Below, piece after piece: positions 39,620-58,845 of a DNA stretch of 64,000 nt. Position 1 is the first letter of the stretch, and every line of letters begins with the position of its first letter. The notes under the pieces were generated by a model. It was not told the origin of the DNA, searched no databases, and saw only the letters and a list, made by a program, of their open reading frames with translations. Both the position numbers and the translations under genes were made by a program. The stretch is taken from the NCBI GenBank assembly GCA_964462675.1, contig CAYWYS010000002.1, forward strand, positions 42,110-106,109. Reading direction: 5' to 3'. The DNA is from an uncultured Thioalkalivibrio sp. (GTDB lineage Bacteria; Pseudomonadota; Gammaproteobacteria; Steroidobacterales; XN24).

Positions 39620-40938
39620 GCACCGGCCCCGGTGGAATCGTCCGCGACGATGCTGACGCGCAACGGTTCCTCGCTGCTCAGATGCACGTCGCGCTGCGGA
39701 TAGGGAATGCCGACGCCCTCCTCCTTGAAGGCCCGCCAGACCCTGCGCAGGATGTCGCTGCGGACGTTGTTGATGCCGTTCATCGGGTCGCCGACCCAGA
39801 TGCGCAACTCGAGATCGATCGCGTTGTCACCGAAGGACCGCAGCTGGCAAACCGGCGCCGGCTCGGCGAGGACCCGCGGAATCTCGCCCGCGCAGCGCAC
39901 GCAGAGTTCGATGGCGCGCTCCGGGTCCGAGTCGTAGTGAATGCCAATCGGAATCTTGATGCGAACCTTGCTGTCCGAGTGGGTCCAGTTCTCGACCCGG
40001 GTCGTGATGAATTCCTCGTTCGGGATCAGGTGCTCGATGCCATCCCGCGTCACGACCGAGACGTAGCGCCCGCCGAGCGTGTTGACCCAGCCATAGGTGC
40101 CGGCGACTGCGACGACGTCGCCCGGCTTGATGGATTTGTCGAGCAACAGGATCAGGCCCGAGAACAGGTTCGCGATGACACGCTGCAGGCCGAGGCCCAC
40201 GCCGACACCGACCGCGCCGCCGAACACGGCCAATGCAGTGAGGTCCATCCCGGTGGTCGACACCGCGGCGACCACGGCGATCGTGACCAGGCTGAACTTC
40301 AGCAGCTTGCCGAACAGCACCTGCACAGAGGGGGTCAGGTTCGGGCTGTGCCGGAGCCGGGCTTCCAGCGTCTCCGACACGACCGTCGCCAGCCACAGCA
40401 GGACCGCGAGCGAGAACGCCGACTTGGTGACGGTCAGCAAGGAGATGCGTACCGCGCCGAACTGGACGGCGAAGGAATCGAGCAACGCGACGGTAGGATC
40501 GAGCAGCCTGAGAATGTTCAGCGCGGCGACGGTCCAGGCCGTGATTGCGACCGCCCGGGCCCACACCGGGTTTCTGATCAGCCGGGCCGCGACATTGATG
40601 ACGACCCAGGCCATCAACAGGCTTGCGGCGATCTCCAGCAGCCGAAAGGGCCAGTCGCGCAACACGGCCGCCTGCCAGGCAACCCCGACCAGCAGCAGCC
40701 ACAACAGCGGCAAAATCAGCGGCTGCAGGCCGTCCAGGAAGCGCCGCCAGCGGCCATCAGCAGCCAGGCCGACCAGGAAGCGGCGCAGGCGAGGCGCGGC
40801 AAACGCGGCACCGGCCAGCGCGGCCGCAACCGCAACCAGTTGCAACAGGGTCGGCAGGACCAGCACCTGCTCGGCGACCCATGCCCAGGCCACCTTCACA
40901 AGTCCGGTCCAGCGCTCGGGACTGAACCATTCCTCCAT
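39616..40938 (-). CDS. MscS-family channel with an extended N-terminal TM region
   Basis: 'GAVGVGVGLGLQRVIANLFSGLILLLDKSIKPGD', 'IPNEEF'; start inferred at MEEWF. Confidence 0.9.
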   Translation of the reverse strand: MEEWFSPERWTGLVKVAWAWVAEQVLVLPTLLQLVAVAAALAGAAFAAPRLRRFLVGLAADGRWRRFLDGLQPLILPLLWLLLVGVAWQAAVLRDWPFRLLEIAASLLMAWVVINVAARLIRNPVWARAVAITAWTVAALNILRLLDPTVALLDSFAVQFGAVRISLLTVTKSAFSLAVLLWLATVVSETLEARLRHSPNLTPSVQVLFGKLLKFSLVTIAVVAAVSTTGMDLTALAVFGGAVGVGVGLGLQRVIANLFSGLILLLDKSIKPGDVVAVAGTYGWVNTLGGRYVSVVTRDGIEHLIPNEEFITTRVENWTHSDSKVRIKIPIGIHYDSDPERAIELCVRCAGEIPRVLAEPAPVCQLRSFGDNAIDLELRIWVGDPMNGINNVRSDILRRVWRAFKEEGVGIPYPQRDVHLSSEEPLRVSIVADDSTGAGA

Positions 40939-40994
40939 CCGGACCCCTCCCGCGGGCCGCGGAAAACCAGCGCAGCATACCATCCCCTGCAAAG

Positions 40995-41024
40995 CAGAAA
41001 GCCCGGCTCGCGCCGGGCTTTCTG
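40995..41024. terminator. Bidirectional intrinsic terminator downstream of hynL
   Basis: CAGAAAGCCCGGC-TCGC-GCCGGGCTTTCTG, a perfect 13 bp stem. Confidence 0.8.
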
Positions 41025-41059
41025 GGTCCTTGCCCCGAGGCAGGGTTCAGCGCATCGGT

Positions 41060-42793
41060 CTACAGCGCCTTGACCTGCACCAGTTCCTTGCCGTCCGGAT
41101 CCGTCACGTGCACGGCGCAGGCCAGGCAGGGATCGAAGCTGTGGATGGTGCGCAGGATCTCGATCGGCTGCTCAGGGTCATACAGCTGGTGATTGTCCTG
41201 CAACGCCGCCTCGTAGGCGCCCGGCACACCCTGCGGGTCGCGCGGACCCGCGTTCCAGGTGCTCGGCACGACGCACTGGTAGTTGTCGATCCGGCCGTTC
41301 TTGATGACGATCCAGTGCGACAGGCCACCGCGCGGCGCCTCGTGCAGGCCGACGCCCTTCGCCTCGCTCGGCCAGGACGACGGATCCCAGAGGATCTCGT
41401 TGAAGGTCCGCGTGTCGCCGGCCCGGATGTTGCCCAGCAGCTGGTCCATCCAGCCCTGCATCGCGTCTGCGACGATCTTCGTCTCGAGCGTCCGCGCGGC
41501 CGTGCGGCCGAGGGTCGAGAACAGCGCGGAGACCGGCGCGTCCAGGGTGCGCAGCGTATAGTCGACGAGCTCCTTGGTCTGGTCGTGGCCCTGCGCGTAC
41601 ATCAGCAGCACGCGCGCCAGCGGGCCCACTTCCATCGAATGCCCTTTCCAGCGCGGCGACTTCAGCCAGCTGTAGCCGTCTTCGACATTGAGCTGCTTGT
41701 AGGGCGGCGTCGGGCCGCCGCGGCCCTCGTAGTTCAGCGCCGTCTCGCCATCCCACGGGTGCAGTCCCTGGTTCTTGCCACCCGAGTAGTCGTACCAGGC
41801 ATGGCTGACGAACTCCTGGATGCCGTTCGGATCCTTGAAGTCCACCTCGTGGATCTCATTGATGTTGCGGCCGAGGATTGCGCCGCGCGGGAACAGGAAG
41901 CTGTCCGGGTCGTTCATCGTCTTCGACGGCAGATCACCGAAGGAAATGAAGTTGCCGAGTCCCTCGCCCCGCCCGAACCAGTCCTTGTAGAAGCCGGCGA
42001 TGGCCAGCGTATCCGGCACGTAGACCTGATCCACGAAGACCTTCATCATCGTGATGATCTGCTGCACGATCTCGAGCCGCTCGGCATTGATCGCTGAATC
42101 GGAGTTCAGGTCGATCGGGCTCGGCACGCCGCCGACGACGAAGTTCGGGTGCGGGTTCTTGCCGCCGAAGATCGCGTGCAGCTTCGCCACGTCCCGCTGC
42201 CAGGCCAAGGCCTCGAGGTAGTGCGCCACGGCCATCAGGTTCGCTTCCGGCGGCAGCTTGTAGGCGGGATGGCCCCAGTATGCGTTGGCGAAGATGCCAA
42301 GCTGGCCGCCCTCGACGAAGCCCTGCAGCTTCTTCTTGACGTCGCGGAAATAGCCCTCAGAGGACTTCGGCCAGCTCGGCGAGACCGCCTTGGCCAGCTC
42401 CGCGGTCGCAGCCGCGTCGGCGCTCAGCGCCGAGACGACGTCCACCCAGTCGAGCGCATGCAGGTGATAGAAGTGCATCACGTGATCGAGCACATACTGC
42501 GAGCCGATCATCATGTTGCGGATCAGCTGTGCGTTCTTCGGTATCTCGTACTTCAGCGCGTCCTCGACAGCCCGGATCGACGCCATGCCATGCACCAGCG
42601 TGCAGACGCCGCAGATGCGCTGGACGAAGGCCCACGCATCCCGCGGGTCCCGGCCCTGCATGATGATCTCGATGCCGCGCACCATCGTGCCCGAGGAGTA
42701 CGCCTGCTGGATGCGATCGCCCTGCATCTGCACCTCGACGCGGAGGTGGCCTTCGATGCGGGTGATCGGGTCTACGACGACTCGATTGCTCAT
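41060..42793 (-). CDS. hynL: Group 1 [NiFe]-hydrogenase large subunit
   Basis: 'DPITRIEGH', L1 RICGVC, L2 DPCLACAVH plus a 15 aa cleavable tail. Confidence 0.97.
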   Translation of the reverse strand: MSNRVVVDPITRIEGHLRVEVQMQGDRIQQAYSSGTMVRGIEIIMQGRDPRDAWAFVQRICGVCTLVHGMASIRAVEDALKYEIPKNAQLIRNMMIGSQYVLDHVMHFYHLHALDWVDVVSALSADAAATAELAKAVSPSWPKSSEGYFRDVKKKLQGFVEGGQLGIFANAYWGHPAYKLPPEANLMAVAHYLEALAWQRDVAKLHAIFGGKNPHPNFVVGGVPSPIDLNSDSAINAERLEIVQQIITMMKVFVDQVYVPDTLAIAGFYKDWFGRGEGLGNFISFGDLPSKTMNDPDSFLFPRGAILGRNINEIHEVDFKDPNGIQEFVSHAWYDYSGGKNQGLHPWDGETALNYEGRGGPTPPYKQLNVEDGYSWLKSPRWKGHSMEVGPLARVLLMYAQGHDQTKELVDYTLRTLDAPVSALFSTLGRTAARTLETKIVADAMQGWMDQLLGNIRAGDTRTFNEILWDPSSWPSEAKGVGLHEAPRGGLSHWIVIKNGRIDNYQCVVPSTWNAGPRDPQGVPGAYEAALQDNHQLYDPEQPIEILRTIHSFDPCLACAVHVTDPDGKELVQVKAL

Positions 42794-42840
42794 ATTAGTA
42801 CCCCGATCCTTGTAAGTCGTTCGCTACCGGCGTGCCGGGT

Positions 42841-44169
42841 TCAAGCCAGGTTGTCGCTGACCAGGGTGACAAGATTCACGATCTTCTTGTCCCAGTTCAG
42901 CCACGCCTTGCCCATTTCAAGATTCTGCATGCAGGTATTGCAGGCAGTGACCACCGTTGGCGCACCGGTCCGTTCAACCTCTTCGCGCTTCAGCTCAAAG
43001 GCCTTCTGGCGCAGCTGCTTGGCGCTCTTCAGCATGACGACGCCGCCGCCGCCGCCGCAACACAGGTTGGTGCGGCCATGCGATTCCATTTCCGTCAGCT
43101 TGACGCCCAGCGCCCCGAGTACGTCGCGGGCCTCGTCGAAGGAGCCGCCCAGGCGGCCGATCTTGCACGGGTCATGGAAAGTGACGTGCGCCGCGCCGTT
43201 GCTCGCCTTCTTCAGCTTCAGCCGGCCGGCCTTCAGCTCCTGGCCCAGGTATTCCGCCGCCGAGACGAACTCGAACGGCAGCTCCTTGCCATACAGCGTG
43301 GCGGCCTCCCAGCGCAGCACCGGATAGGCATGGCCGCATTCGGCGACGATGACCTTCTTGGCGCCGCAGGCGACTGCCGCGTCGATGACGCGCTTGCTGA
43401 TGCGCCGCTGTGCCTGCATGTCGCCGGCCAGCGCGCCGAAGTTGGCCGATTCGAAGCCGTCACTGCGCACGGTCCAGCTCACGCCGAGCTTGTTCATGAT
43501 CTTCGCGGTAGCGGCCAGGATGTTCTCGTCCTTCAGGAAATCCATCGCTGAGGACAGCACCAGCACGTCGGCCTTCGCCTGGTCGAGCGGCACCTCGATG
43601 CCCTTCGCCCGCACCCGCTCCACGACCTCGCGCAGCTTGTCGGGCCCGGCGCCGAGGATCGTGCCCTTGTCCTTTTGTTCGTCGGACACGGCCTGTAGCT
43701 CGGCCGGCGCGAGTCCGGCTGCCGACAGACCGCTGCGCACGACCTGGATCATGCTCTGGATGTGGATGCCCATCGGGCACAACAGGCTGCAACGGCCGCA
43801 CTGCGTGCAGGAGTCGTAGGCCAGCTCTTGCCAGGCCTCGAGCTCTGCCGCCGTGATGTCGCGGGTGAACAGCCGGTTCAGCCAGCGGGTCGGCGCCAGC
43901 TCGCGCCGGTAGACCTTCTTCAGCGGCTCGAGCTTGTAGATCGGCGTGTACTTTGCGTCGCCGGTCGAGATGTAGAAATGGCAGGCCTCGGCGCACATCC
44001 CGCAATGGATGCAGGACTCGAGGTAAGTGGCCATGTCCGCGCTCATGCCGGCAAGGAATGCCTGCTTCGCGCGGGCGACTTTCTGGTCGTCAGACAGCGC
44101 CTTCGGCTTCAGGCCGGCGGCTGCGCGCTCGCCGAGCGTGCCGTAGTCAGGAATCGTTGTCGCGCTCAT
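42841..44169 (-). CDS. isp2: Isp2: heterodisulfide-reductase-like Fe-S protein
   Basis: CIHCGMCAEAC and CTQCGRCSLLCP; CCG-domain motifs HDPC, CCGGGGG, TACNTC; lies between hynS and hynL. Confidence 0.9.
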   Translation of the reverse strand: MSATTIPDYGTLGERAAAGLKPKALSDDQKVARAKQAFLAGMSADMATYLESCIHCGMCAEACHFYISTGDAKYTPIYKLEPLKKVYRRELAPTRWLNRLFTRDITAAELEAWQELAYDSCTQCGRCSLLCPMGIHIQSMIQVVRSGLSAAGLAPAELQAVSDEQKDKGTILGAGPDKLREVVERVRAKGIEVPLDQAKADVLVLSSAMDFLKDENILAATAKIMNKLGVSWTVRSDGFESANFGALAGDMQAQRRISKRVIDAAVACGAKKVIVAECGHAYPVLRWEAATLYGKELPFEFVSAAEYLGQELKAGRLKLKKASNGAAHVTFHDPCKIGRLGGSFDEARDVLGALGVKLTEMESHGRTNLCCGGGGGVVMLKSAKQLRQKAFELKREEVERTGAPTVVTACNTCMQNLEMGKAWLNWDKKIVNLVTLVSDNLA

Positions 44170-44846
44170 GCCCGTACCCCTCTCCGTGCGAAGGCGGCCC
44201 CGACCTTGTAGCGGGACGGCCAGATAAAGATGGCGTGCATCAGCTTGCCGAACGGGAACCAGACCAGCAGCAGGCAGATGCTCAGAATATGCAGTGCCAG
44301 GACCGTCTCGTATTGCATGCCGAAGGTGATGTGCGTGAACGACATGATTCCCGTCAGGAAGGGCAGGAACGCCACGATCCAGCTGAAGTAGTCATCCATG
44401 GTCGAGATCTGCCGCAACACCGGGTTCATCAAGCGGCGCGCCAGCAGGACCAGCAGGATGCCCATCGTCACCACGGTGAAGAACGTGATGAACAGGTTGG
44501 GCAGCGTCGGCCAGCCGAAGCCAAGGATGCTCTTGAAAAACAGCATGTGCGGCGCGAAGAACAGCAGCACGATGAACATGCTGATGTGCCACGCATAGCC
44601 CGAGTAGTGCTGGAAAACGATGTTCTTCTCCAGCTCGTGCGCGGGTGCCGAGCGCGTCAACAGCGTCTTGACGCCGCCGGAGACGGCCGAGCCCTTGGGC
44701 GCCGAGAGGTCCTTGCGCGAATAGAGCAGCAGCGCCGTGATGCGCCAGACGAGCCCGATCACGAAGATCGCGACGGCCCAGCGGAACGCCGGCCCGCGGG
44801 CGAAGTCGAGCAGCGACATGCCCTGTAGATAGAGTCCCTCGTTCAT
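44166..44846 (-). CDS. isp1: Isp1: NarI-like diheme cytochrome b
   Basis: About 5 TM segments, His pairs 'WHIS...PHML' and 'ALHIL...KLMHA'; ATGA overlaps with both neighbours. Confidence 0.9.
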   Translation of the reverse strand: MNEGLYLQGMSLLDFARGPAFRWAVAIFVIGLVWRITALLLYSRKDLSAPKGSAVSGGVKTLLTRSAPAHELEKNIVFQHYSGYAWHISMFIVLLFFAPHMLFFKSILGFGWPTLPNLFITFFTVVTMGILLVLLARRLMNPVLRQISTMDDYFSWIVAFLPFLTGIMSFTHITFGMQYETVLALHILSICLLLVWFPFGKLMHAIFIWPSRYKVGAAFARRGVRA

Positions 44847-45907
44847 GCCTTTTCCTCCTGCTGCGCCTTCTTCTGTTTGCCGCGAGCGAGCGCTGCGGCA
44901 GCCAGGCCGGCTGCGGCGCCTGCGGCGGCGGTGATGCCGACGGTCTTGACGTCGCCCCAGTAGGCGGCCGACAACGGCCTGTAGAAGCTGCCCTTGTCCC
45001 AGAAATTCGGTTCCGAGCAGCCAATGCAGCCGTGGCCGGACTGCACCGGCCAGCTGACGCCGTTGTTCCACCGCAGAGTGGCGCACGCGTTGTAAGTGAC
45101 CGGTCCCTTGCAGCCGAGCTCGTAGAGGCAATAGCCCTTGCGCGCACCCTCGTCGTCGAAGGTCTTCGCAAACAGGCCGCGCTCGTAGAACGGGCGGCGA
45201 TAGCAACGGTCATGGATGTTCTGGCCGAAGAACGCCATCGGCCGGCCGTGCCGGTCGAGCTCCGGGATCGTGCCGAAGGTCAGGTAATGGGCCAGCACGC
45301 CGGTGATCACGGTCGGGATCGGCGGGCAGCCCGGCACGTTGATGATCGGCTTGTCCTTGATGATGTCCTGCACGCCGACCGCCTGGGTCGGGTTCGGGTT
45401 GGCGCGGCCGATGCCGCCGTAGGCCGCGCAGGTGCCGATCGTGACGATCGCGGCGGCGCCGGCGGCGGCCTCCTTCAACATCGACAGATGCGTATGGCCG
45501 TTGGTGCAAGAATACGCTTCGAACTCACCGGTCGGGATAGAGCCGTCGACGAGCAACAGGTAGTTGCCCCAGTTTTCCTTCATCGCCTGGTGCATGGCAT
45601 CTTCGGCGCGCTGGCCGGATGCAGCTTGCAGCGTATGGTGATAGTCAAGCGAGATGGCGTCGAAAATCAGGCCCTCGACGGTCGGCGAGTGCGAGCGGGT
45701 CAGCGACTCGGTGCAGCCGGTGCACTCCTGGAACGGAAGCCAGAAAACCGACGGGCGCCGCGCGTTCTCGATCGCCGCCGCGACGGCCCCAACCATGCTT
45801 GGCGGCAGTGCCATCATGGACGCGGTAGCCGCGCAGAACTTCATGAATCCGCGACGGCTGACTCCGTTCGCCCGGAGGACGTCGCCTACGGTGTTGCTTG
45901 CTGCCAT
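44843..45907 (-). CDS. hynS: [NiFe]-hydrogenase small subunit (Tat signal, C-terminal anchor)
   Basis: SRRGFMKFC; ECTGCTES; GTCAAYGG; PGCPP; HDRCYRR; CLYELGCKGP; HGCIGCSE. Confidence 0.96.
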   Translation of the reverse strand: MAASNTVGDVLRANGVSRRGFMKFCAATASMMALPPSMVGAVAAAIENARRPSVFWLPFQECTGCTESLTRSHSPTVEGLIFDAISLDYHHTLQAASGQRAEDAMHQAMKENWGNYLLLVDGSIPTGEFEAYSCTNGHTHLSMLKEAAAGAAAIVTIGTCAAYGGIGRANPNPTQAVGVQDIIKDKPIINVPGCPPIPTVITGVLAHYLTFGTIPELDRHGRPMAFFGQNIHDRCYRRPFYERGLFAKTFDDEGARKGYCLYELGCKGPVTYNACATLRWNNGVSWPVQSGHGCIGCSEPNFWDKGSFYRPLSAAYWGDVKTVGITAAAGAAAGLAAAALARGKQKKAQQEEKA

Positions 45908-45962
45908 GCTGTGCTCCTCCGCACTGCCCCGAGTGTTGCTTGCACGGGGCCTTCGGGTGTCT

Positions 45963-46388
45963 TCAATTACCGGCCGACGCCAGCGCGTTGGCCAGTTCCG
46001 TGAGACCTTTCTGGACGTCCTCGACCTGCGCCTGCAGGAGCGACGGCACCCACGTAATCTCGATGAAACGGCTGGCGAACCCGCCGGAGCCGTCCAGATG
46101 CTCGATAATCCATACGCCGGAATAACGCGACTCGCGGATGACGGTCTTGCCGAGCGCCTCGAGCTCCGCGCGGACTTCTCCCTCGCCAAGCGCGTCGAAC
46201 AGCCGGCGCATGTCGCCGGGGCCCATCGGCAGGCTCTGGATGTCAATGACGGTCGGCTCGCCTTCCTCGATGAGGCGGGCCAGCGCGTGGCGAATTTCGT
46301 GCAGCAGGGGTAAGGCGTTGCCGCGGAGCTCAGGCTCCAGCGCTGCGCCGGACTCCACTTTTACCCCGATTCCAGTGAGACCGCTCAT
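45963..46388 (-). CDS. hupH: HupH/HyaF-type hydrogenase expression protein
   Basis: 'GNALPLLHEI..AL..L', 'LGEGEV', 'RESRYSGVW'; position between the protease gene and hynS. Confidence 0.85.
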   Translation of the reverse strand: MSGLTGIGVKVESGAALEPELRGNALPLLHEIRHALARLIEEGEPTVIDIQSLPMGPGDMRRLFDALGEGEVRAELEALGKTVIRESRYSGVWIIEHLDGSGGFASRFIEITWVPSLLQAQVEDVQKGLTELANALASAGN

Positions 46389-46517
46389 GGCGCCTCCGCC
46401 GGCTGCGTGACGGGTCCTGTCCCGGACCTCGAGACGCGCCAGTCTTTGTCGTTGCTTCAATACCTTAAGCGGCAATCTATGCGCCTCGTGATAGCGCATC
46501 AATACGCAATTCACACA

Positions 46518-47036
46518 TCAAGCGGCCGCCTCGCCGGCGTCGATTTCGATGCCCGTCCACTCCGTGATCAGTGCCGCCACGGCCCGCGCAGCCTCGGGCA
46601 AGGCGGCGCCCACGGCGGGGCTCGGCTCGGTGCCCCAGTCGATGATCGCGGGCTGGATGCCGACCAGTGCGCGCCGCTGCGGCAAGCGCTCGGTGAGACG
46701 CGCCATGTTCATCAGGTCCATCAGGCCGACTTCATGGATGCTGCGCCCGTGGCCGCCGAGCATCTTGTCCATTTCCTCGTCCACGAAGACGCGCACGGTG
46801 CCCGGTGCCGCCTTCAGCTCGGTCGCATCCACAACGATCAGGTACTGGGCATCTTCGACGTCGGCCGAGATCGAGAAACTCAGCGTGCCGCCGTCCATCC
46901 AGTGGACGCCAGGCGCCTCCGGATTCAGCGCCCTCAGGCGCTCCACGACCCAGGGCCCAACGCCCTCGTCCGTCAGGATCGTATTGCCGACGCCAAGGAC
47001 CAGGGTCCCGCTCTTGACGTGCTCTGCTGGGTTCAT
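46518..47036 (-). CDS. hynD: Hydrogenase maturation protease
   Basis: 'LVLGVGNTILTDEGVG', 'DGGT', 'IVVDA', 'HEVGL.DL'. Confidence 0.93.
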   Translation of the reverse strand: MNPAEHVKSGTLVLGVGNTILTDEGVGPWVVERLRALNPEAPGVHWMDGGTLSFSISADVEDAQYLIVVDATELKAAPGTVRVFVDEEMDKMLGGHGRSIHEVGLMDLMNMARLTERLPQRRALVGIQPAIIDWGTEPSPAVGAALPEAARAVAALITEWTGIEIDAGEAAA

Positions 47037-47182
47037 CGTTTGGGGCTCCAGTCCGCGGTTTCGGGGGCGCCGCCGCAGCATACCGGGATGAGAATCAGCC
47101 GCATCAGGACTTCTACGAGCTTGCGCGCGGCGGTCCGGGGTGGCAGCTTGATGACCTGGAGAGAGCGTGGCGGAGTACTAAT

Positions 47183-47416
47183 ATGTGTCTTGGCATCCCC
47201 ATGAAGGTCGTCGCGGTGAACGGCTTCCTCGCGCGCTGCGAGGCGAAGGGCATCCAGCGCGATGTCAACCTGTTCATGATGCAGGATGAACCGGTCGCGA
47301 CGGGCGAGTTCGTCATGGTGCACGTCGGCTACGCGATCCAGAAAATGACCGAGCAGGAAGCCCGCTCTGCCTGGGAGGTCTACGACCAGATGCTCGCCAA
47401 CGAGGCCAACGCCTGA
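47183..47416 (+). CDS. hypC: HypC chaperone
   Basis: MCLGIP, 'VMVHVGYAI'. Confidence 0.96.
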   Translation: MCLGIPMKVVAVNGFLARCEAKGIQRDVNLFMMQDEPVATGEFVMVHVGYAIQKMTEQEARSAWEVYDQMLANEANA

Positions 47417-47423
47417 GCGCCGG

Positions 47424-47795
47424 ATGCACGAGCTTTCGGTCTGCCAGGCCCTGGTCCAGCAACTCGAGTCGGTCTCCGCAACCAATGGCGGCGGCGCCGT
47501 CGAGGTCGTCAGGCTGCGGATCGGCCCCTTGTCGGGCGTCGAGGCCGCGCTGCTGCGCCATGCGTTCCCGCTTGCGGCCGCCGGCACGATCGCAGCCGGC
47601 GCGGAACTGCTGATCGAGGCCGCGCCCGTCGTTGTGCATTGCAATGAGTGCGGCGCCGACAGCGCCGCAGCGCCCAACCGGATGCTGTGCGGCGCCTGCG
47701 GCGGCTACCGCGTGCGCATGATCTCCGGCGACGAGATGCTGCTCGAGTCGGTCGAGCTGGCGGCCGCCGGCGCGCCGTCCGCCGAAGTGTTGTAA
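47424..47795 (+). CDS. hypA: HypA nickel metallochaperone
   Basis: MHELS, CNEC and CGAC, 'SGDEM'. Confidence 0.95.
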   Translation: MHELSVCQALVQQLESVSATNGGGAVEVVRLRIGPLSGVEAALLRHAFPLAAAGTIAAGAELLIEAAPVVVHCNECGADSAAAPNRMLCGACGGYRVRMISGDEMLLESVELAAAGAPSAEVL

Positions 47796-47834
47796 ATTCC
47801 CGGTCTTCGGACCTGCAATTTCCTGGAGTTCGCC

Positions 47835-48758
47835 ATGTGCGATACCTGCGGCTGCAATATCACTGACGGCAACCGTTACCTGGTCGCCGCCGGCGGCAAG
47901 CTTGCGCAGACCTCGGATGGTCGCTCGGCGGTGACCGTGCTCAAGAGCCTGCTCGCGGAGAACGACCAGCAGGCCCTGCATAACCGGGCGCACTTCGATG
48001 CCCGCGGCATCCTCGCGGTCAACCTGATGTCCTCGCCCGGCGCCGGCAAGACTGCGCTGCTCGAGGCCACCATCGACGCGCTCGGGGACCCCCGCCGCAT
48101 GGTCGTCATCGAGGGCGACCTCGAGACCGAAAACGATGCGGCCCGGATTCGCGCCAAGGGCGTCGAGGCCATCCAGATCGCCACTGGCAGCGCCTGTCAC
48201 CTCGATGCGCACATGGTCCACGAGGCGCTCCATCGCCTGGACCTGGCGCAAGTCGATATCGTGTTCATCGAAAACGTCGGCAACCTCGTCTGCCCGGCGA
48301 GCTTCGATCTCGGCCAGCACGTCAACGTGACCTTGCTGTCAGTCACCGAGGGCGACGACAAGCCGGCCAAGTACCCGGTGATGTTCCGCGCCGCGGACCT
48401 GGTGCTGCTGACCAAGACTGACCTGCTTGCGGTACTCGACGACTTCGACCCGATCAAGGCCGAGCAAGCCCTGCGACTGGTCGGCTCCGCGGCGCCGGTG
48501 ATCCATGCCGCGCCGCGCAAGGGCGCCGGCATCGACCACTGGGTCGCCTGGGTCGAGGGCGAGCTGATTGCGCAGCGCGCGCGCGTCGGCGCCGGCACGA
48601 CCCGCCGTCCCCCGGTGCAGGCCGAGGGCGCGCGACTGCATGCCGCCGATCCATCCGCCGGCGAGCACAGCCACAGCCATGGCGAGGACCACGGTCACGC
48701 CCATGGCCACACGCACAGCGATGAGCACGATCACGAGCATGCCGAGGTGAAACCGTGA
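47835..48758 (+). CDS. hypB: HypB GTPase with an N-terminal CxxCGC and a His-rich C-terminal tail
   Basis: MCDTCGC, SSPGAGKT, ACHLDA, ENVGNLVCPA, TKTD; tail HSHSHGEDHGHAHGHTHSDEHDHEH. Confidence 0.96.
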   Translation: MCDTCGCNITDGNRYLVAAGGKLAQTSDGRSAVTVLKSLLAENDQQALHNRAHFDARGILAVNLMSSPGAGKTALLEATIDALGDPRRMVVIEGDLETENDAARIRAKGVEAIQIATGSACHLDAHMVHEALHRLDLAQVDIVFIENVGNLVCPASFDLGQHVNVTLLSVTEGDDKPAKYPVMFRAADLVLLTKTDLLAVLDDFDPIKAEQALRLVGSAAPVIHAAPRKGAGIDHWVAWVEGELIAQRARVGAGTTRRPPVQAEGARLHAADPSAGEHSHSHGEDHGHAHGHTHSDEHDHEHAEVKP

Positions 48759-49855
48759 GCGCGGCACGCGAGTGGCTGGACCGGATCCGGGCGCTGCCGC
48801 TGCCGGAGCGCGTGCGCATCATGAACGTCTGCGGCGGCCACGAGCGTTCGATCTCGATGGCCGGCCTGCGCGGGGCCTTGCCGCCGCAGATCGAGCTGAT
48901 TCCGGGCCCGGGCTGCCCGGTGTGCGTCTGTCCGGAGGAAGACGTCTACCACGCGATGCAGATCGCGCTGCATGAGCCCGACACCATCGTCGTCAGTTTC
49001 GGCGACATGCTCAGGGTGCCGGTCAACCTGCCGCTGAAGGAAACCCGCAGCCTGGAGCAGGCCAAGGCGGCGGGCGGCGACGTGCGGCCAGTGGCCTCCC
49101 CGATGGAGGCCGTGGAGATCGCGCTGCAAAACCCCGACCGGCGCGTGGTGTTCTTTGCCGCCGGTTTCGAGACGACGACCGCACCGGTGGCGGCAATGCT
49201 TGCCGCGGACCCGCCGCCGAACCTGATGGTGTTGCTGTCCGGCCGGCGGACCTGGCCGGCGGTGGCCTTGCTGCTGGAATCCGAGGACCCCGGCTTCGAT
49301 GCGTTGATCGCCCCCGGACACGTCTCCACGATCATGGGCCCGGAGGAATGGGAGTTCGTCGTCAAGGATCACGGCTTGCCGGCCGCGGTGGCGGGCTTCC
49401 ATCCTGAAAGCCTGCTCGCGGCCACCTACTCCGTGCTGCGCCAGGTCATCGAGGGCAAGCGCTTCCTGGACAACTGCTACCTGGAAGTCGCGCGGCCGAA
49501 TGGCAACGCCACGGCGCGACGCTTCCTCGATGAAACCATGGACATCGTGGATGCCTCGTGGCGCGGCATCGGCACGATTCCAGCCTCCGGCTACGGCCTG
49601 AAGCCGCAGCTCGCGGCACGCGATGCGCGCCTGCATTTCCCGGACTATGGCGCACATGACCGCAAGCGCGCGGGCCTGATGCCCAAGGGCTGCGACTGTG
49701 CGCGCGTCGTGCTCGGCAAGATCTACCCGAACCAGTGCCGCATCTATGGCTCGGCCTGTACCCCGCGGACGCCGATCGGCCCGTGCATGGTGTCCGACGA
49801 GGGCGCCTGCCGGATCTGGTGGTCGAACGGCGTCCGGACGCGGGAGGTGGCCTGA
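48755..49855 (+). CDS. hypD: HypD
   Basis: CGGH, GPGCPVC, GFETT, PGHVS, 'GPCMVSDEGAC'. Confidence 0.97.
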   Translation: MSAAREWLDRIRALPLPERVRIMNVCGGHERSISMAGLRGALPPQIELIPGPGCPVCVCPEEDVYHAMQIALHEPDTIVVSFGDMLRVPVNLPLKETRSLEQAKAAGGDVRPVASPMEAVEIALQNPDRRVVFFAAGFETTTAPVAAMLAADPPPNLMVLLSGRRTWPAVALLLESEDPGFDALIAPGHVSTIMGPEEWEFVVKDHGLPAAVAGFHPESLLAATYSVLRQVIEGKRFLDNCYLEVARPNGNATARRFLDETMDIVDASWRGIGTIPASGYGLKPQLAARDARLHFPDYGAHDRKRAGLMPKGCDCARVVLGKIYPNQCRIYGSACTPRTPIGPCMVSDEGACRIWWSNGVRTREVA

Positions 49856-52113
49856 GCCCCGGCCGCCGGCTCTGGATCACCGGGCAGGTCCAGGGGGTCG
49901 GCTTCCGCCCGTTCCTGTACCGCCTCGCGCAACGCCACGGCCTGGTCGGCTGGGCGAAGAATACTGTCGGTGAAGTCGAAGTGCTGGTGTGCGGCACGGC
50001 CGCGGCCCTGGACGCGTTCGCGCACGAGGTGATCGCCGACGCGCCGGCCATCGCCGCGCCGCGCCTGAGGCGGTTGGAGGACTGGCACGGCGCCTGCCCA
50101 GAGGCGTTCAGCATCCTGCCGAGCGAAGCCGGCGCGGAAGCGCGCATCTTCGTGCCGCCGGACTATTTCACCTGCGCCGACTGCCTCGCCGAACTGGCGG
50201 ATCCCGCCGACCGCCGCCGCGGCTACGCGTTCATCAACTGCACGCAGTGTGGTCCCCGTTACACGATCATCCGCGCCCTGCCCTACGACCGCGCCAACAC
50301 CTCGATGGCCGAGTTCCCGCTCTGCGCGGCCTGTCGCCGGGAGTACGAAAATCCCGCCGACCGGCGCTTTCATGCCGAACCCGTCGCCTGTCCGGCCTGC
50401 GGCCCTGCGCTGTCGTGGTCGGCACCCGGCGCCCCGCCGCCCGACCTCGCCCCAGCGGCGCTCGAGGCCTGCGTCGCGGCCCTGGCTGCGGGCCGGCTGG
50501 TCGCGGTCAAGGGCATCGGCGGTTATCACCTGGTCTGTGACGCCGGCAACGCCGCGGCGATCGCGCGCCTCCGGGAACTCAAGCCGCGGCCCGCCAAGCC
50601 GCTTGCGGTGATGTTCCCGCTCGCCGGCCCGGACGGGCTCGACGCGGTGCGGGACACCGCCGTGCCGACGGCGGCCGAGGCAGCCTTGCTGCTGAGCCCG
50701 CAACGGCCGATCGTGCTGGTGCGCAAGCGCGCCGGCACGCTGCCGGAACAGCTCGCGCCCGGGCTTGCGGAGCTCGGCGTCATGCTGCCTTACAGCCCCT
50801 TGCACGCGCTGTTGCTGGACACGCTGCGCCGCCCGCTGGTCGCCACCTCGGCCAACATCAGCGGCGAGCCGGTGCTGACCGACGGCCTCGAAGTGGAAAC
50901 GCGCCTGGCGCATCTCGTCGAGGGCTGCCTGCACCATGACCGGGCGATCGTGCGGCCGGCCGACGACTCGGTGTGGCGCAGCACCGGAGGTCGGCCGCGA
51001 CCGTTGCGGATCGGCCGCGGCTGCGCCCCCGTCGAAATCGAGCTGGCCGTGCGCCTGCAGACTCCCGTGCTGGCCGTCGGCGCGCACATGAAGAACACCC
51101 TGGCGCTGGCCTGGGACGACCGCTGCGTGGTGTCGCCGCACATCGGCGACATGGGCTCGGAGCGCAGCATGGAAGTCTTCGAGCAAGTCGCCGCCGACCT
51201 GCAGCGGCTCTATGGGGTGCGCGCCCAGGCGCTGGTCTGCGATGCCCATCCCGGCTATGCAACGGCCCGCTGGGCACGGCGCAGCGGCCTGCCGGTCAGC
51301 GAGATCCTGCATCACCATGCGCATGCCGGCGCGCTGGCCGCCGAGATGGGCTGCAGCGGCCCGCTGCTGGTGTTCGCCTGGGACGGCGTCGGTTATGGCG
51401 GCGATGGCAGCCTGTGGGGCGGCGAGGCTTTCCTCGGTCGCCCCGGCGCGTGGCGCCGCGTGGCGAGTTTCCGCCCGTTCCGCCTGTCGGGTGGCGAGCG
51501 CGCCGGGCGAGAACCCTGGCGCAGCGCCGCGGCCCTGTGCTGGGAGATCGGTGTCGACTGGCCCGCCTGCCCCGACCCTGAGGGACTCGCCCGGGCCGCC
51601 TGGGACCGTGGCCTGAACACGCCGGCGACCAGCGCCGTCGGCCGGCTGTTTGACGCGGCGGCGGCGCTGACCGGCCTGTGCCGGCACGCCAGCTATGAAG
51701 GCGAGGGACCGATGCGCCTCGAGGCAGCGTTGCTGGGTCCCGCGCCGGGCGACGCCACGGCCCTGCCGCTGGCCGCAGACGCCGGCGGGGTGCTGCGTGC
51801 CGACTGGGCGCCGCTGCTGGCGCCGCTGCTCGATGCATCCCGGCCGCTGCCCGAGCGCGCCGCGCTGTTCCACGAGAGCCTCGCACTGACCGCGGTCGCC
51901 ATGTACCGGGCGCTGCGCGCGATACATCCGATTGCCGGCGTGGGCGCGACCGGCGGCGTGCTGCAGAACCGCCGGCTTGCGGACCGCATGCTGGCGCTGT
52001 TCGCCGCGGAGCAGGTCGAGCTGGCGCTGCCCACCCGGCTGCCGGCCAACGATGCCTGCATCGCATTCGGCCAGGTCATCGAGTGGTCCGCAGGAGGCGC
52101 GCAAGCCGAGTAG
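49852..52113 (+). CDS. hypF: HypF carbamoyltransferase (probable CTG start)
   Basis: Acylphosphatase 'GQVQGVGFRPF', zinc fingers CADC/CTQC/CAAC/CPAC, 'KGIGGYHL', 'DAHPGY', 'HHHAH', 'DGVGYG'. Confidence 0.95.
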   Translation: MSPGRRLWITGQVQGVGFRPFLYRLAQRHGLVGWAKNTVGEVEVLVCGTAAALDAFAHEVIADAPAIAAPRLRRLEDWHGACPEAFSILPSEAGAEARIFVPPDYFTCADCLAELADPADRRRGYAFINCTQCGPRYTIIRALPYDRANTSMAEFPLCAACRREYENPADRRFHAEPVACPACGPALSWSAPGAPPPDLAPAALEACVAALAAGRLVAVKGIGGYHLVCDAGNAAAIARLRELKPRPAKPLAVMFPLAGPDGLDAVRDTAVPTAAEAALLLSPQRPIVLVRKRAGTLPEQLAPGLAELGVMLPYSPLHALLLDTLRRPLVATSANISGEPVLTDGLEVETRLAHLVEGCLHHDRAIVRPADDSVWRSTGGRPRPLRIGRGCAPVEIELAVRLQTPVLAVGAHMKNTLALAWDDRCVVSPHIGDMGSERSMEVFEQVAADLQRLYGVRAQALVCDAHPGYATARWARRSGLPVSEILHHHAHAGALAAEMGCSGPLLVFAWDGVGYGGDGSLWGGEAFLGRPGAWRRVASFRPFRLSGGERAGREPWRSAAALCWEIGVDWPACPDPEGLARAAWDRGLNTPATSAVGRLFDAAAALTGLCRHASYEGEGPMRLEAALLGPAPGDATALPLAADAGGVLRADWAPLLAPLLDASRPLPERAALFHESLALTAVAMYRALRAIHPIAGVGATGGVLQNRRLADRMLALFAAEQVELALPTRLPANDACIAFGQVIEWSAGGAQAE

Positions 52114-52165
52114 AATGGCAGGCTGATTACGCTGATAACCCGAGTCCGACGAGGAGACCACCGGC

Positions 52166-53179
52166 ATGGCGCTTGACGAGGCACGCATCGGCCTGGCCCA
52201 CGGCAATGGCGGCCGCTTCATGCGGGAGCTCATCCAGGAAGTGTTCGCGCGTCACCTCGGCGGCGGCATTCTCGATACCGACCTCGACGCCTGCCCGCTG
52301 CCGCAGCTGCCCGCCGGTGAGGTGGTTTTCACGACCGATGGTTTCATCGTGCAGCCGCTGGAGTTTCCCGGCGGCGACATCGGCTCGCTCGCGGTGCATG
52401 GCACGACGAACGATCTCGCCGTCGCCGGCGCGACGCCGCTGTACCTGTCGCTGAACGTATTCATCGAGGAGGGCCTCGAGGTCGAGGTGCTGGACCGGAT
52501 CGTTGCCAGCCTGGCGCGCGCGGCGCGCGAAACCGGCGTCCAGGTCGCCGCCGGCGACACCAAGGTGCTGCCGCGCGGCGAAGGCGGCGGCCTGTATCTT
52601 GCGACCACCGGCATCGGCGTGCGCCGGCCCGGAACGCGGCTCAGCATGGACCAGGTCAGGCCGGGTGATCGCGTGCTCGTCAGCGGCAGCGTCGGCGATC
52701 ATGGCATCTGCGTATTGCTGGCGCGCGAGCAGTTCGGCCTGCGCGGCGACCTTGCGTCCGACTCTGCCAGCGTATTGCCGTTGACCAGCGCGCTGCTGGA
52801 ACTCGACGGGCTGCGGTTCATGCGCGACCCGACGCGCGGCGGACTTGCGACCGTCGCCCACGAGATCGCGCGTGCTACCGGCTGCTCACTGCGGCTTTCG
52901 GAGGCGGCCATTCCCGTGCGGGATCCGGTGCGCAGCGTCTGCGAGATGCTGGGCTACGATCCGCTGTACCTCGCCTGCGAAGGCCGTGTCGTCGCAGTGC
53001 TGGCACCGGGCGATGCGGAGCGCGCGCTGGCAGCATGGCGTGCATTGCCGGGCGGCAAGGATGCGGCGATCATCGGCCACGTCGATCCCGAGGGCCGGCC
53101 GGTGATCATCGAGACGGAACTCGGCGGCCGACGGATGCTCGAGGAACTCGAGGACGATCCATTGCCGCGGATCTGCTGA
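52166..53179 (+). CDS. hypE: HypE
   Basis: 'LAHGNGG', 'TTDGF', 'GDTKV', 'MRDPTRGG', 'ACEG', terminal PRIC. Confidence 0.97.
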   Translation: MALDEARIGLAHGNGGRFMRELIQEVFARHLGGGILDTDLDACPLPQLPAGEVVFTTDGFIVQPLEFPGGDIGSLAVHGTTNDLAVAGATPLYLSLNVFIEEGLEVEVLDRIVASLARAARETGVQVAAGDTKVLPRGEGGGLYLATTGIGVRRPGTRLSMDQVRPGDRVLVSGSVGDHGICVLLAREQFGLRGDLASDSASVLPLTSALLELDGLRFMRDPTRGGLATVAHEIARATGCSLRLSEAAIPVRDPVRSVCEMLGYDPLYLACEGRVVAVLAPGDAERALAAWRALPGGKDAAIIGHVDPEGRPVIIETELGGRRMLEELEDDPLPRIC

Positions 53180-53194
53180 TCGGCAGCTTAGCTG

Positions 53195-54007
53195 ATGTCT
53201 TTCGTCGCCACCGGAATCATCACCCTGACCACTGACTTTGGGCTGCGGGACCCGTTCGTCGGTATCGTCAGGGGACGGATCCTGGGCCGGTTTGCGCCGG
53301 CCCGGATCGTCGACCTCAGCCACGGCATCGCCCGCGGCCGCGCCGACCTCGCCGGCTTCTGGCTGGCGCGGTGCTGGCGCGAGTTTCCGCCGGGCACGCT
53401 GCACCTCGCGGTCGTGGATCCCGGCGTCGGCACTTCGCGCCGCGTCGTGCTGGCCGCGGTGGATGGTCAGCTGTTGCTCGCGCCGGACAACGGGCTGCTG
53501 CCGGAAGCGCTGCGCGGCTGCACTGGGGTCCGCTGGCAGGCGATGGATTCCCGGCTGCCGGCCCGCCTTGGCCTGTGCCCGCTGTCGAGCACCTTCCACG
53601 GTCGCGACCTGTTCGCGCCGCTGGCGGCCGCGCTGGCCTCGGGCGAGCTCGACATGGAGGATTTCGGCCCGGCTGCGACGCCGCTGGATCCGTGCCCGCT
53701 GCCCGGCCCGAGCCGCAAGCCGGATGGCATCGTCGGCCGGGTCGTGCTGACCGATCGCTTCGGCAACCTGTTCACCAACATCGGCGCGGAGCTCGTCGCC
53801 CCGTGCCGGCAACCGACGCTCGAGACGCCTGACGGCCGGCACTGGCCGCTGCTGCAGACCTACGGCGACGTTGCCGCCGGCGCCGGCCTCGCGCTGGTCA
53901 ACGCCTTCGGTCTCGTGGAACTGGCCATCAACGGCGGCAGTGCCGCGGTTGCGCTGGGTCTGGGGGAAGGCGCCGCCGTCTGGCTGCGGGACGGCCTGGC
54001 CGCCTGA
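53195..54007 (+). CDS. DUF62 SAM hydroxide adenosyltransferase (SAM hydrolase)
   Basis: 'LTTDFG', 'VVDPGVGTSRR', 'APDNG', 'TFHGRDLF', 'DRFGNL'. Confidence 0.9.
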   Translation: MSFVATGIITLTTDFGLRDPFVGIVRGRILGRFAPARIVDLSHGIARGRADLAGFWLARCWREFPPGTLHLAVVDPGVGTSRRVVLAAVDGQLLLAPDNGLLPEALRGCTGVRWQAMDSRLPARLGLCPLSSTFHGRDLFAPLAAALASGELDMEDFGPAATPLDPCPLPGPSRKPDGIVGRVVLTDRFGNLFTNIGAELVAPCRQPTLETPDGRHWPLLQTYGDVAAGAGLALVNAFGLVELAINGGSAAVALGLGEGAAVWLRDGLAA

Positions 54008-54056
54008 GCGGCTTCGATTTTCTTATACTCGCTAAAGACACGGAAGGGTCCAGACA

Positions 54057-56105
54057 ATGAACAACGACAGAACCGACGCCATCCGCAACCTCGCCCTGAT
54101 CGGACCCGCCGGCGGCGGCAAGACCAGCGTCGCCGAGGCGCTGTTGTTTGCCGCCGGCGCGGTCAAGCAGCGCGGCCGCACGGAACGCGGCGATACGGTA
54201 TGCGATTTCGATCCGCGCGAGATCGCCATGGGGCATTCGCTCGATACCGCCGTCTGCCACCTGCGCTGGCAGGACACCGAGATCAACATCATCGACACGC
54301 CCGGGTTCACCGACTTCCTGCCGCGCGCGACCGCCGTGCTGCCGGCCGTCGAGTGCGCCGCGCTGGTCGTGTCGGCCGCGGGCGGCCTCGAGACGGGCGT
54401 GCGCCGCATGATGAAGGCCGCCGGCGATGCGGCGCTCGGCCGGCTGATCATTGTCAACAAGATGGACTCGGAGCCCGACAAGCTCCACGAGCTGCTCGCC
54501 GAGATCCAGGAAGCTTTCGGCCAGCGCTGCCTGCCGGTCAACCTGCCGAGCGACCACGGTCGCAAGGTCGTGGACTGCTTCTTCCGGGACAGCGGCGAGG
54601 GCACGGACTTTTCCAGCATCGCGGAGGCGCATACGAAGATCATCGACCAGGTCGTCGAGGTCGACGAGGCCCTGATGGAGGCGTACCTGGAATCGGGCCA
54701 GCATCTCGATCCGCAGCAGTTGCACGACGCCTTCGAGAAAGCCTTGCGGGAACGGCACCTTATCCCGGTGATCTTCGTCTCGGCCGAGACCGGCGCGGGC
54801 ATCGAGGCGCTACTCGACTATATCGTCAAGCTGCTGCCGAGCCCGCGCGAAGCCAACCCGCCGCCGTTCATGCGCGGCGAGGGCGAGACGGCGGAGCCGG
54901 TCGTGGTCACCGCGGAGCCCGACAAGCACGTCGTGGCGCATGTGTTCAAGATCGTCGTCGATCCCTATGTCGGCCGTACCGCGGTGCTGCGCGTGCACCA
55001 GGGCACGATCAAGACCGGCGCGCAGCTGTTCGTCGGCGACTCCCGCAAGCCGATCAAGCTGAACCATCTTTACCGCCTGCAGGGCAAGCAGTCGGCCGAG
55101 GCCGCCGCGGCGGGCCCGGGCGACATCGTCGCCGTCACGCGCATCGACAGCCTGAATTTCAACGACGTGCTGCATGACTCGCATGACGAGGACAACCTCC
55201 ACGTGCGCCTGCCCGAGGCGGCGCCGCCGATGATGGGCATCGCGATCAAGCCGGCGCAGCGCGGCAACGAGCAGAAACTATCGGACGCGCTGCACAAGCT
55301 GTGCGCCGAGGATCCGGCGCTGCGCGTGGAGCATCGTCCGTCCACCAACGAGACGGTCGTCCTGTGCAGCGGCGAGCTGCACCTGCGGCTGGTCATGGAA
55401 GCGATGAAGGAGCGCTTCAACGTCGAGGTCGAAACCCACCCGCCGACAATCCCTTACCGTGAAACGATCACCAAGCCCGCGGAGGGGCATCACCGGCACA
55501 AGAAGCAGACGGGGGGCGCCGGGCAGTTCGGCGAGGTCTACCTGCGCATCGCGCCGCTGCCGCGCGGCACCGGGTTCGAATTCGTCAGCGAGGTTGTCGG
55601 CGGCACGATTCCCCAGCAGTTCATTCCGGCCGTCGAGAAGGGCGTCCGCCAGGCGCTCGATTCGGGCGCCATCGCCGGCTTCCCGCTGCAGGACATCCGC
55701 GTGGCCGTTTACGACGGCAAGACGCATCCGGTGGATTCCAAGGAGGTCGCGTTCATCAGCGCGGGGCGGCGCGCCTTCATCGAGGCGATCAAGAACGCCG
55801 GACCGATCGTGCTGGAACCGATCGTGCAGTTGCAGGTGACCGTGCCGATCGATTCACTCGGCACCATCACCGGTCATTTGTCCTCGCGCCGCGGCCGTGT
55901 GCTCGGCTCGACTTCGCTGTCCGGCCTGCGGATCCAGGTCGATGCCGAGGCGCCGCTGGCGGAGCTGCAGGACTATGCCAACCAGTTGAAGTCCATGACC
56001 GGCGGCTCCGGCGCCTGGTCGATGCAGCTCGACCGCTACGAGCCGGTGCCGCCGAAGGTGCAACAGGAGCTGATGAGCGCTGCACGGACTGAAGAAGCGG
56101 ATTGA
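54057..56105 (+). CDS. Elongation factor G paralog (EF-G2/FusA-like)
   Basis: IRNLALIG, G1 GPAGGGKT, DTPG, NKMD, 'PYRETI', 'KKQTGGAGQFGEV', 'LEPI'; the RGITI switch is replaced by MGHSL. Confidence 0.92.
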   Translation: MNNDRTDAIRNLALIGPAGGGKTSVAEALLFAAGAVKQRGRTERGDTVCDFDPREIAMGHSLDTAVCHLRWQDTEINIIDTPGFTDFLPRATAVLPAVECAALVVSAAGGLETGVRRMMKAAGDAALGRLIIVNKMDSEPDKLHELLAEIQEAFGQRCLPVNLPSDHGRKVVDCFFRDSGEGTDFSSIAEAHTKIIDQVVEVDEALMEAYLESGQHLDPQQLHDAFEKALRERHLIPVIFVSAETGAGIEALLDYIVKLLPSPREANPPPFMRGEGETAEPVVVTAEPDKHVVAHVFKIVVDPYVGRTAVLRVHQGTIKTGAQLFVGDSRKPIKLNHLYRLQGKQSAEAAAAGPGDIVAVTRIDSLNFNDVLHDSHDEDNLHVRLPEAAPPMMGIAIKPAQRGNEQKLSDALHKLCAEDPALRVEHRPSTNETVVLCSGELHLRLVMEAMKERFNVEVETHPPTIPYRETITKPAEGHHRHKKQTGGAGQFGEVYLRIAPLPRGTGFEFVSEVVGGTIPQQFIPAVEKGVRQALDSGAIAGFPLQDIRVAVYDGKTHPVDSKEVAFISAGRRAFIEAIKNAGPIVLEPIVQLQVTVPIDSLGTITGHLSSRRGRVLGSTSLSGLRIQVDAEAPLAELQDYANQLKSMTGGSGAWSMQLDRYEPVPPKVQQELMSAARTEEAD

Positions 56106-58767: not shown

Positions 58768-58845
58768 GGCCGGTCTCCCGCCGCAGAGTCATGATCTGTT
58801 CCTAGTATAGTGGCAGCCTCGGCCACTCACTGCTGGAGACGCGGC

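Follow-up and report, generated by a model that had tools for sequence, protein, structure and literature searches.

The window analysed here, a 64,000-nucleotide (nt) stretch of the genome of an uncultured Thioalkalivibrio sp. (assembly GCA_964462675.1, contig CAYWYS010000002.1, positions 42,110 to 106,109), carries at positions 41060-53179 a complete and functional-looking Isp-type, or group 1e, [NiFe] hydrogenase together with its own maturation set. As judged from its sequence and its genomic setting, the enzyme probably acts in H2 uptake and delivers electrons to the quinone pool, and from there to the respiration of oxygen or nitrite. Of its twelve intact genes, hynD-hupH-hynS-isp1-isp2-hynL are encoded on the minus strand and hypCABDFE on the plus strand. 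Neither the enzyme class nor the operon nor the clustering of maturation genes is new, and the locus by itself adds little; what is unusual is the host, which belongs to a genus without the sulfur-oxidation genes that nearly always accompany group 1e.

The class membership of the enzyme is established by structural matches, phylogeny and operon content. In the Protein Data Bank (PDB), the best match of HynL was the Allochromatium vinosum large subunit (3myr_B, 1007 bits), compared with 723 bits for the best group 1d chain and ~540 bits for Hyd-2/1c, and the best match of HynS was the cognate chain 3myr_A (448 bits, versus 346 bits for Hyd-1). In a maximum-likelihood tree of 31 large subunits, rooted on Hyd-2 of E. 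coli, HynL of the window grouped with six same-genus sequences at 100% support, within a 99% clade that also holds the HynL proteins of Thiocapsa, Thiocystis, Thiodiazotropha, Sedimenticola, Woeseiaceae and symbionts; E. coli Hyd-1 (group 1d) and the hydrogenases of sister genera formed a separate 99% clade. HynL therefore falls inside the 1e clade, the point on which the initial annotation, made from the sequence alone, had staked its proposal of an Isp-type, group 1e-like enzyme. The operon agrees with the tree in that isp1 and isp2 are encoded between hynS and hynL, the arrangement that marks group 1e. The marks of group 1d, namely a six-Cys proximal [4Fe-3S] cluster and a HyaC/HupC cytochrome b, are lacking, and no HyaC homologue is encoded in the locus.

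The predicted cofactor ligands of the catalytic subunits are intact. HynL carries the Ni-Fe motifs RICGVC (Cys61/64) and DPCLACAVH (Cys556/559, His562) as well as a His-rich HxxHxxHxH stretch at residues 104-112, and it ends in a 15-residue extension for cleavage by HynD, the protease encoded in the locus. HynS starts at the Met that precedes the twin-arginine translocation (Tat) motif SRRGFMKF and ends in a hydrophobic anchor. Its residues are arranged for a proximal cluster (Cys62/65/160/194), a medial cluster (Cys275/294/297) and a distal cluster (His232/Cys235/260/266), and the 11 Fe-S ligands are invariant in 63 of 63 sequences. The proximal-cluster motifs, ECTGCTES and GTCAAYGG, are of the 4-Cys and not of the 6-Cys kind, and the supernumerary Cys residues of group 1d are absent.

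The two Isp proteins likewise retain all their predicted heme and Fe-S ligands. Isp1 has five hydrophobic helices, which the positive-inside rule orients with the N-terminus out and the C-terminus in, and four His residues (His86, His99, His185 and His203), predicted ligands of two hemes b, that are invariant in 62 of 62 homologues. Because of this topology, one predicted heme, held by one His pair, would lie near each face of the membrane. NarI places its two hemes comparably. Isp2 has no signal peptide and contains two complete CxxCxxCxxxC motifs (eight Cys, two [4Fe-4S] sites) and one complete CCG motif (Cys335/370/371/410/413); none of these Cys residues is substituted in any of the 72 sequences, the one departure at some positions being a gap in a single sequence. 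As in DsrMK, TmcCB and HmcEF, a membrane protein with two hemes b is paired with a CCG Fe-S protein of the cytoplasm. However, the scores against the corresponding NCBIfam models fall far under the equivalog cut-offs, both for Isp2 (DsrK, 206 bits against a cut-off of 400; TmcB, 192 against 735; HmcF, 189 against 750) and for Isp1 (TmcC, 108 against 240; HmcE, 79 against 275), and the genome encodes no DsrC, DsrAB or cytochrome c3 partner. By sequence, Isp1 and Isp2 are homologous to the TmcC/HmcE and DsrK/TmcB/HmcF modules, respectively, but are not members of those equivalogs. The PDB contains no solved Isp1 or Isp2 structure; the lone relative of Isp2 found there was 9ojn_A (62 bits), and for Isp1 there was none.

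The features of the locus are collected in the table, in which, as throughout, plain coordinates are positions in the window, and genes were chosen by third-position GC content and domain matches (the GC content of the genome is high, ~68%). A complete hynS-isp1-isp2-hynL set with hypCABDFE diverging from it across a 146-nt gap had been described initially, and these coordinates were borne out to the base; so was the self-contained nature of the locus, with hynD, hupH and a full hyp set beside the structural genes. Each of the twelve genes is single-copy in the genome and free of internal stops. The hynS stop codon shares its last base with the start of isp1 (a 1-nt overlap), and isp1 and isp2 overlap by 4 nt, which suggests translational coupling of hynS, isp1 and isp2. 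The start of hynD was set at the ATG at 47036, which is conserved in nine genus members, unlike the sequence upstream of it, into which the open reading frame (ORF) extends as far as 47081. The true start of hypF is probably nearer to the hypD stop than that of the listed ORF.

Features of the hydrogenase locus (positions in the 64,000-nt window)
Feature	Position	Strand	Evidence or remark
hynL, [NiFe] hydrogenase large subunit, 577 aa	41060-42793	-	PF00374, 782 bits
isp2, cytoplasmic HdrD/DsrK-like Fe-S protein, 442 aa	42841-44169	-	Pfam CCG and Fer4 dicluster domains
isp1, five-helix di-heme b membrane protein, 225 aa	44166-44843	-	TmcC-, HmcE-, NarI-like
hynS, small subunit, 354 aa, Tat signal and C-terminal anchor	44843-45907	-	TIGR00391, 442 bits
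hupH-like maturation protein, 141 aa	45963-46388	-	PF04809 HupH_C, 5.5e-28
hynD, HycI-type large-subunit C-terminal endopeptidase, 172 aa	46518-47036	-	PF01750; TIGR00072, 133 bits
hynD/hypC divergent control region, 146 nt	47037-47182	.	between hynD start and hypC start
hypC	47183-47416	+	PF01455, 7e-24
hypA	47424-47795	+	PF01155, 1e-28
hypB, N-terminal CxxCGC and C-terminal His-rich tail	47835-48758	+	TIGR00073, 264 bits
hypD	48755-49855	+	PF01924, 399 bits
hypF (ORF as listed)	49735-52113	+	TIGR00143, 677 bits; first domain from residue 45
hypE	52166-53179	+	AIRS and AIRS_C domains; homologue within same cluster in related loci

Comparison with other loci indicated that this organisation is the norm and not a peculiarity. 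When the twelve proteins were searched by tblastn against 80 related loci from named genomes, hypEFDBAC followed by divergent hynD-hupH-hynS-isp1-isp2-hynL was recovered in ~60 of the 80, wherever the contig was long enough, in hosts that include Thiodiazotropha, Solemya and tubeworm symbionts, Sedimenticola, Thiothrix, Woeseiaceae and metagenome-assembled genomes (MAGs) of Chromatiaceae; the position of the hupH-like gene is the same in most of them. The gene order is thus common in chemotrophic Gammaproteobacteria (Thiodiazotropha, Sedimenticola, Woeseiaceae and symbionts) and is not confined to purple sulfur bacteria, of whose Hyn enzyme it had been called the hallmark, and the divergent hyp genes with hynD and hupH upstream, remarked on initially, are the usual arrangement. 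Identity to the 80 loci ranged from 74 to 77% for HynL and from 62 to 74% for HynS but only from 34 to 56% for Isp1 and Isp2, so that the Isp proteins diverge much faster than the catalytic subunits; their nearest homologues are Woeseiaceae-type proteins (46-56% identity). An extra gene of 157 amino acids lies between isp2 and hynL in 35 of the 80 loci (for example, L005:8041-8514) and is absent from this genome. One uncultured Woeseiaceae MAG (L063, 9042-15500) is rearranged, with hynD-hupH followed directly by hynL, and with hynS-isp1-isp2 inverted downstream; either a genuine inversion or an artefact of assembly could account for this.

Among characterised systems, the closest likeness is to the Hyn enzymes of Thiocapsa roseopersicina/bogorovii and Allochromatium vinosum, which share the four-gene order, the 4-Cys proximal cluster, the Tat signal, the four His residues of Isp1 and the CCG motif of Isp2; HynL is 75% identical to that of Thiocapsa. 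By contrast, identity to the Thiocapsa proteins is only 35-37% for Isp1 and Isp2, the protease, HupH and hyp genes that are clustered here are scattered in Thiocapsa (PMC3102683), and this host, with one hydrogenase, has no phototrophy and no Dsr/Sox sulfur oxidation, whereas Thiocapsa has five hydrogenases (PMC10892978). The compact, self-sufficient cluster and the accessory order hynD-hupH-hynS...hynL-hypCABDFE are reminiscent of HynSL of the Alteromonas macleodii Deep ecotype (PMC3102683); the published gene list for that organism differs, however, in having no isp1 or isp2, a 'cyt' gene and co-oriented hyp genes (PMC3102683). With the group 1d (E. coli Hyd-1 type) enzymes of its sister genera, the hydrogenase has in common that it is a periplasmic, Tat-exported uptake enzyme, and the large subunits are 58-61% identical; the sister-genus enzymes carry the 6-Cys motifs ECTCCTES and GSCASWGC and a HyaC cytochrome b, in place of the 4-Cys motifs and Isp1/Isp2 found here. 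The Alteromonas macleodii Deep ecotype is a heterotroph. In some relatives the two hydrogenase types stand side by side: on a Woeseiaceae MAG contig (L026, 1581-11710), a group 1d operon encoding a 6-Cys HyaA, HyaB, HyaC and HyaD adjoins a complete Isp-type operon.

The genomic background was established by searches of the whole assembly (3.22 Mb, 90 contigs, 96% complete), which encodes only one [NiFe] large subunit. The initial annotation had noted that the window holds no genes for sulfur oxidation or photosynthesis; this is true, and it extends to the searches of the whole genome. DsrA, SoxB, the FccB flavin domain, DsrC/TusE, DsrE and a photosynthetic reaction centre were not found in the genome, nor were CCG proteins of the HdrB or sHdr type, the other CCG proteins of the genome being only GlpC- and GlcF-like. 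None of the 13 Pyr_redox_2 proteins of the genome, which were surveyed in place of a dedicated SQR model, is SQR-like. Only two molybdopterin enzymes are encoded, NuoG and a Tat-type formate dehydrogenase (FdhA), and it follows that Nar, Nap, Psr, Phs, Sre and Soe are absent; the genome-wide search for dsr, sox, psr and nar genes that had been advised at the outset thus came back empty. A polysulfide or thiosulfate reductase identity was considered for the periplasmic molybdoenzyme and rejected in view of its full-length FdhA match (9vap_A, 1393 bits) and its Fdh-type partner subunits. In the region concerned (L097, G000:C3:86000-100000), the FdhA-like protein of 962 amino acids is encoded with FeS and cytochrome b561 subunits, and genes for DUF3305, DUF3306 and a 560-residue multi-[4Fe-4S] protein lie upstream.

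The sole sulfur-handling enzyme found in the genome was a flavoprotein of the CoA-persulfide-reductase/Npsr type, with PDB matches to the Shewanella persulfide reductase 3nta (463 bits) and to the CoA-persulfide reductase 8a56 (461 bits). Annotated otherwise as CoA-disulfide-reductase-like (L121:673-2427, minus strand, corresponding to G000:C48:6382-8136), it has an extra C-terminal region with a rhodanese tail.

The respiratory inventory is fuller. The genome encodes a bc1 cytochrome b, aa3- and cbb3-type oxidases, NirS and a form I RuBisCO (G000:C28:24279-25202). The nirS gene (G000:C2:64491-65669) lies ~16.5 kb from the hydrogenase locus, close to the 17 kb first estimated. From this proximity and from a nearby TauE exporter, it had been proposed that H2 might drive nitrite or sulfur respiration. 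The nitrite half of the proposal is plausible given NirS, bc1 and the c-type oxidases; the sulfur half finds no genomic support, and the TauE-family gene (58795-59613), a member of a generic anion-exporter family 5.6 kb from the locus beyond unrelated genes, is evidence neither way. No recognised NorB was found in this NirS-bearing genome, and a NosZ search gave no match, although the control genomes were equally silent. A third, divergent COX1-like protein of 568 amino acids (COX1, 222 bits; L100:1156-2862, minus strand, corresponding to G000:C1 ~149662-150957) had no NCBIfam match at 1e-20 and is, on its sequence, a possible unconventional oxidase or NO reductase.

To place these findings in context, we surveyed the genus, the family and the class. 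HynL is present in 13 of the 14 other genomes of the genus, at 87-93% identity (the exception is 75% complete), and the MscS and OPT flanks are the same across the genus where contigs reach. DsrA was absent from all 41 relatives searched, and a search of ten genus genomes gave no DsrE. SoxB above the cut-off was found in no genome of the genus, the single partial match coming from a short contig in a MAG whose contamination is 6%. Among the 15 genus genomes, form I RuBisCO is present in two, including this one, a strong NirS match in nine and bc1 in all 15. From these counts, together with that of HynL, the genus appears to be mainly heterotrophic, with H2 as an extra source of energy; autotrophy is accessory in the genus and the hydrogenase is core, and CO2 fixation is probably an additional capacity of this strain. 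In the same family, the sister genera have a 6-Cys group 1d hydrogenase with HyaC, and several have SoxB, so that within its family the genus differs both in the type of its hydrogenase and in lacking Sox.

A family-balanced draw of 400 genomes from the class, in which a HynL of at least 63% identity to that of the window was scored as 1e-like and partial HynL matches of 67-82% identity were also counted, yielded 48 genomes with a 1e-like HynL. SoxB and DsrA were both present in 33 of these, SoxB only in eight, DsrA only in four and neither in three; one of the last three has a congener with both. SoxB and/or DsrA thus occurred in 45 of 48 genomes with a 1e-like HynL versus 116 of 352 without, counts that are descriptive, because relatedness makes the genomes non-independent. 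They still show that a 1e enzyme seldom occurs without Sox or Dsr, and this genus is such a case: co-occurring dissimilatory sulfur genes, the usual association of group 1e hosts though not a defining feature, are not found here.

Taken together, the intact ligands and the respiratory background are consistent with a mechanism in which HynSL, matured by HypABCDEF, HupH and HynD, would be exported by the Tat pathway and held at the periplasmic face of the membrane by the HynS tail. The Ni-Fe site would split H2, releasing protons outside the cell, and the electrons would travel by way of the three HynS Fe-S clusters to the outer Isp1 heme and then across the membrane to the inner one. On the cytoplasmic side they would leave by way of quinone and/or the Fe-S and CCG clusters of Isp2, which would make the system an electrogenic redox loop, and quinol could be oxidised through the bc1 complex by the cbb3 or aa3 oxidases or by NirS. 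H2 oxidation as the direction of catalysis, quinone as the exit, and oxygen and nitrite as the terminal acceptors are the most likely assignments on present sequence evidence. The enzyme would then supply H2-derived energy to a mostly heterotrophic genus, of which this strain would be a facultatively CO2-fixing member.

Several points weigh against uptake coupled to the respiration of oxygen or nitrite. The catalytic-type, disulfide-reductase-type CCG site of Isp2 is intact, which implies a putative thiol or disulfide substrate, yet the usual candidate partners, DsrC and the DsrE/TusA/LbpA modules, are lacking in the genome. The 4-Cys proximal cluster suggests a lower O2 tolerance than that of the 1d enzymes of the sister genera, and for this reason microoxic or anoxic use fits better than fully aerobic use. 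The purified Thiocapsa enzyme reduces elemental sulfur (S0) with H2, which is its only established physiological role (PMC10892978), and because that enzyme reduces S0 itself, the lack of Psr/Sre does not exclude sulfur reduction. In addition, HydDB lists group 1e as mainly serving sulfur respiration and as reversible (PMC5037454). Finally, at 96% completeness of the genome, absences from it are not absolute.

The conserved CCG catalytic motif, the activity of the Thiocapsa enzyme (PMC10892978) and the HydDB description (PMC5037454) also speak for an alternative in which H2 drives the reduction of sulfur or polysulfide, either directly by HynSL in the periplasm or by way of Isp2 and a cytoplasmic persulfide or disulfide carrier, as has been proposed for purple sulfur bacteria and is assumed by HydDB (PMC5037454). 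The persulfide-reductase-like flavoprotein with its rhodanese tail would suit such a scheme, as would the presence of Sox and/or Dsr in 45 of the 48 sampled genomes with a 1e-like HynL. This host, however, was searched for DsrAB, SoxB, sHdr, DsrC, DsrE, FccB, SQR-like proteins and molybdoenzymes of the Psr/Phs/Sre type and has none of them; the searches for DsrA, SoxB and DsrE across the genus found none either, and the fifth gene of the hyn operons of many sulfur oxidisers is missing. Sulfur reduction would here depend on the hydrogenase and the flavoprotein, with no other gene to assist them. We therefore consider it unlikely, and the enzyme probably has no role in sulfur respiration in this organism.

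Uptake into the quinone pool is also to be preferred to the reverse reaction, in which the enzyme would act under anoxia as a redox valve, getting rid of surplus reductant (quinol or thiol) in the form of H2. Group 1e has been described as physiologically reversible (PMC5037454, PMC7735108), and the Thiocapsa Hyn enzyme works in both directions, evolving H2 and consuming it (PMC10892978). However, a donor at the level of ubiquinol makes H2 evolution strongly endergonic, the locus has no linked fermentative or low-potential donor system, and a periplasmic, Tat-exported enzyme with a di-heme wire through the membrane has the layout of an uptake enzyme, all of which makes a valve quite improbable. 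That the locus is a silent or decaying relic without a current role is scarcely credible given that 12 of 12 genes are intact with all ligands conserved and that the locus has been kept in 14 of 15 genus genomes at 87-93% protein identity and with the same flanks.

The control of the locus was also considered. An alignment of nine genus members revealed two conserved blocks in the 146-nt gap between hynD and hypC, one at ~47075-47125 and one, the motif TGGCAGC, at ~47148, ~35 nt before hypC, and both are candidate operator sites. No sigma-70 consensus was found and a scan of 40500-54200 gave no promoter; terminator-like sites in the same interval were no more frequent than in shuffled sequence. 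By eye, the 146-nt gap contains no FNR palindrome, only a TTGAT half-site that is unconserved in the genus, and no sigma-54 elements with -24/-12 spacing, the TGGCAGC block being wrongly spaced. The flanks of the locus are unrelated genes, for MscS and OPT on one side and for an SAM hydroxide adenosyltransferase and EF-G on the other. Within the locus, an untranslated gap of 129 nt (46389-46517) separates hynD from hupH and has about the same size (131 nt) in a same-genus locus (L001). The His-rich stretch of HypB is usually N-terminal. In the window it is C-terminal (48590-48758), where 12 of the final 70 residues are His and the stretch includes HSHSHGEDHGHAHGHTH; the tails of same-genus copies are even longer (20 His in L001), and a C-terminal His-rich tail also occurs in a few other lineages but not in most of the 80 loci.

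The Isp2 acceptor, and hence the physiological role of group 1e, is still unsettled (PMC10892978), and metagenomic surveys routinely count 1e genes as sulfur respiration (PMC8443593). The results of our analyses raise the possibility, which we put forward tentatively, that in this genus the Isp-type hydrogenase works without any dissimilatory sulfur metabolism, with Isp1 and Isp2 feeding quinone and an acceptor other than DsrC or DsrE in respiration under microoxic conditions or with nitrite. Were this the case, it would be a mistake, for such lineages, to interpret every 1e gene in a metagenome as 'hydrogenotrophic sulfur respiration', and the genus would offer a clean natural background for identifying the real substrate of Isp2. 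As a rare counter-example (three of 48 in the balanced sample) that keeps an intact 1e enzyme as its sole hydrogenase, with no Sox, Dsr or DsrE found in the searches across it and no sHdr, DsrC, FccB, SQR or Psr found in this genome, the genus provides a simple system in which to ask whether the Isp module depends on sulfur chemistry in any way.

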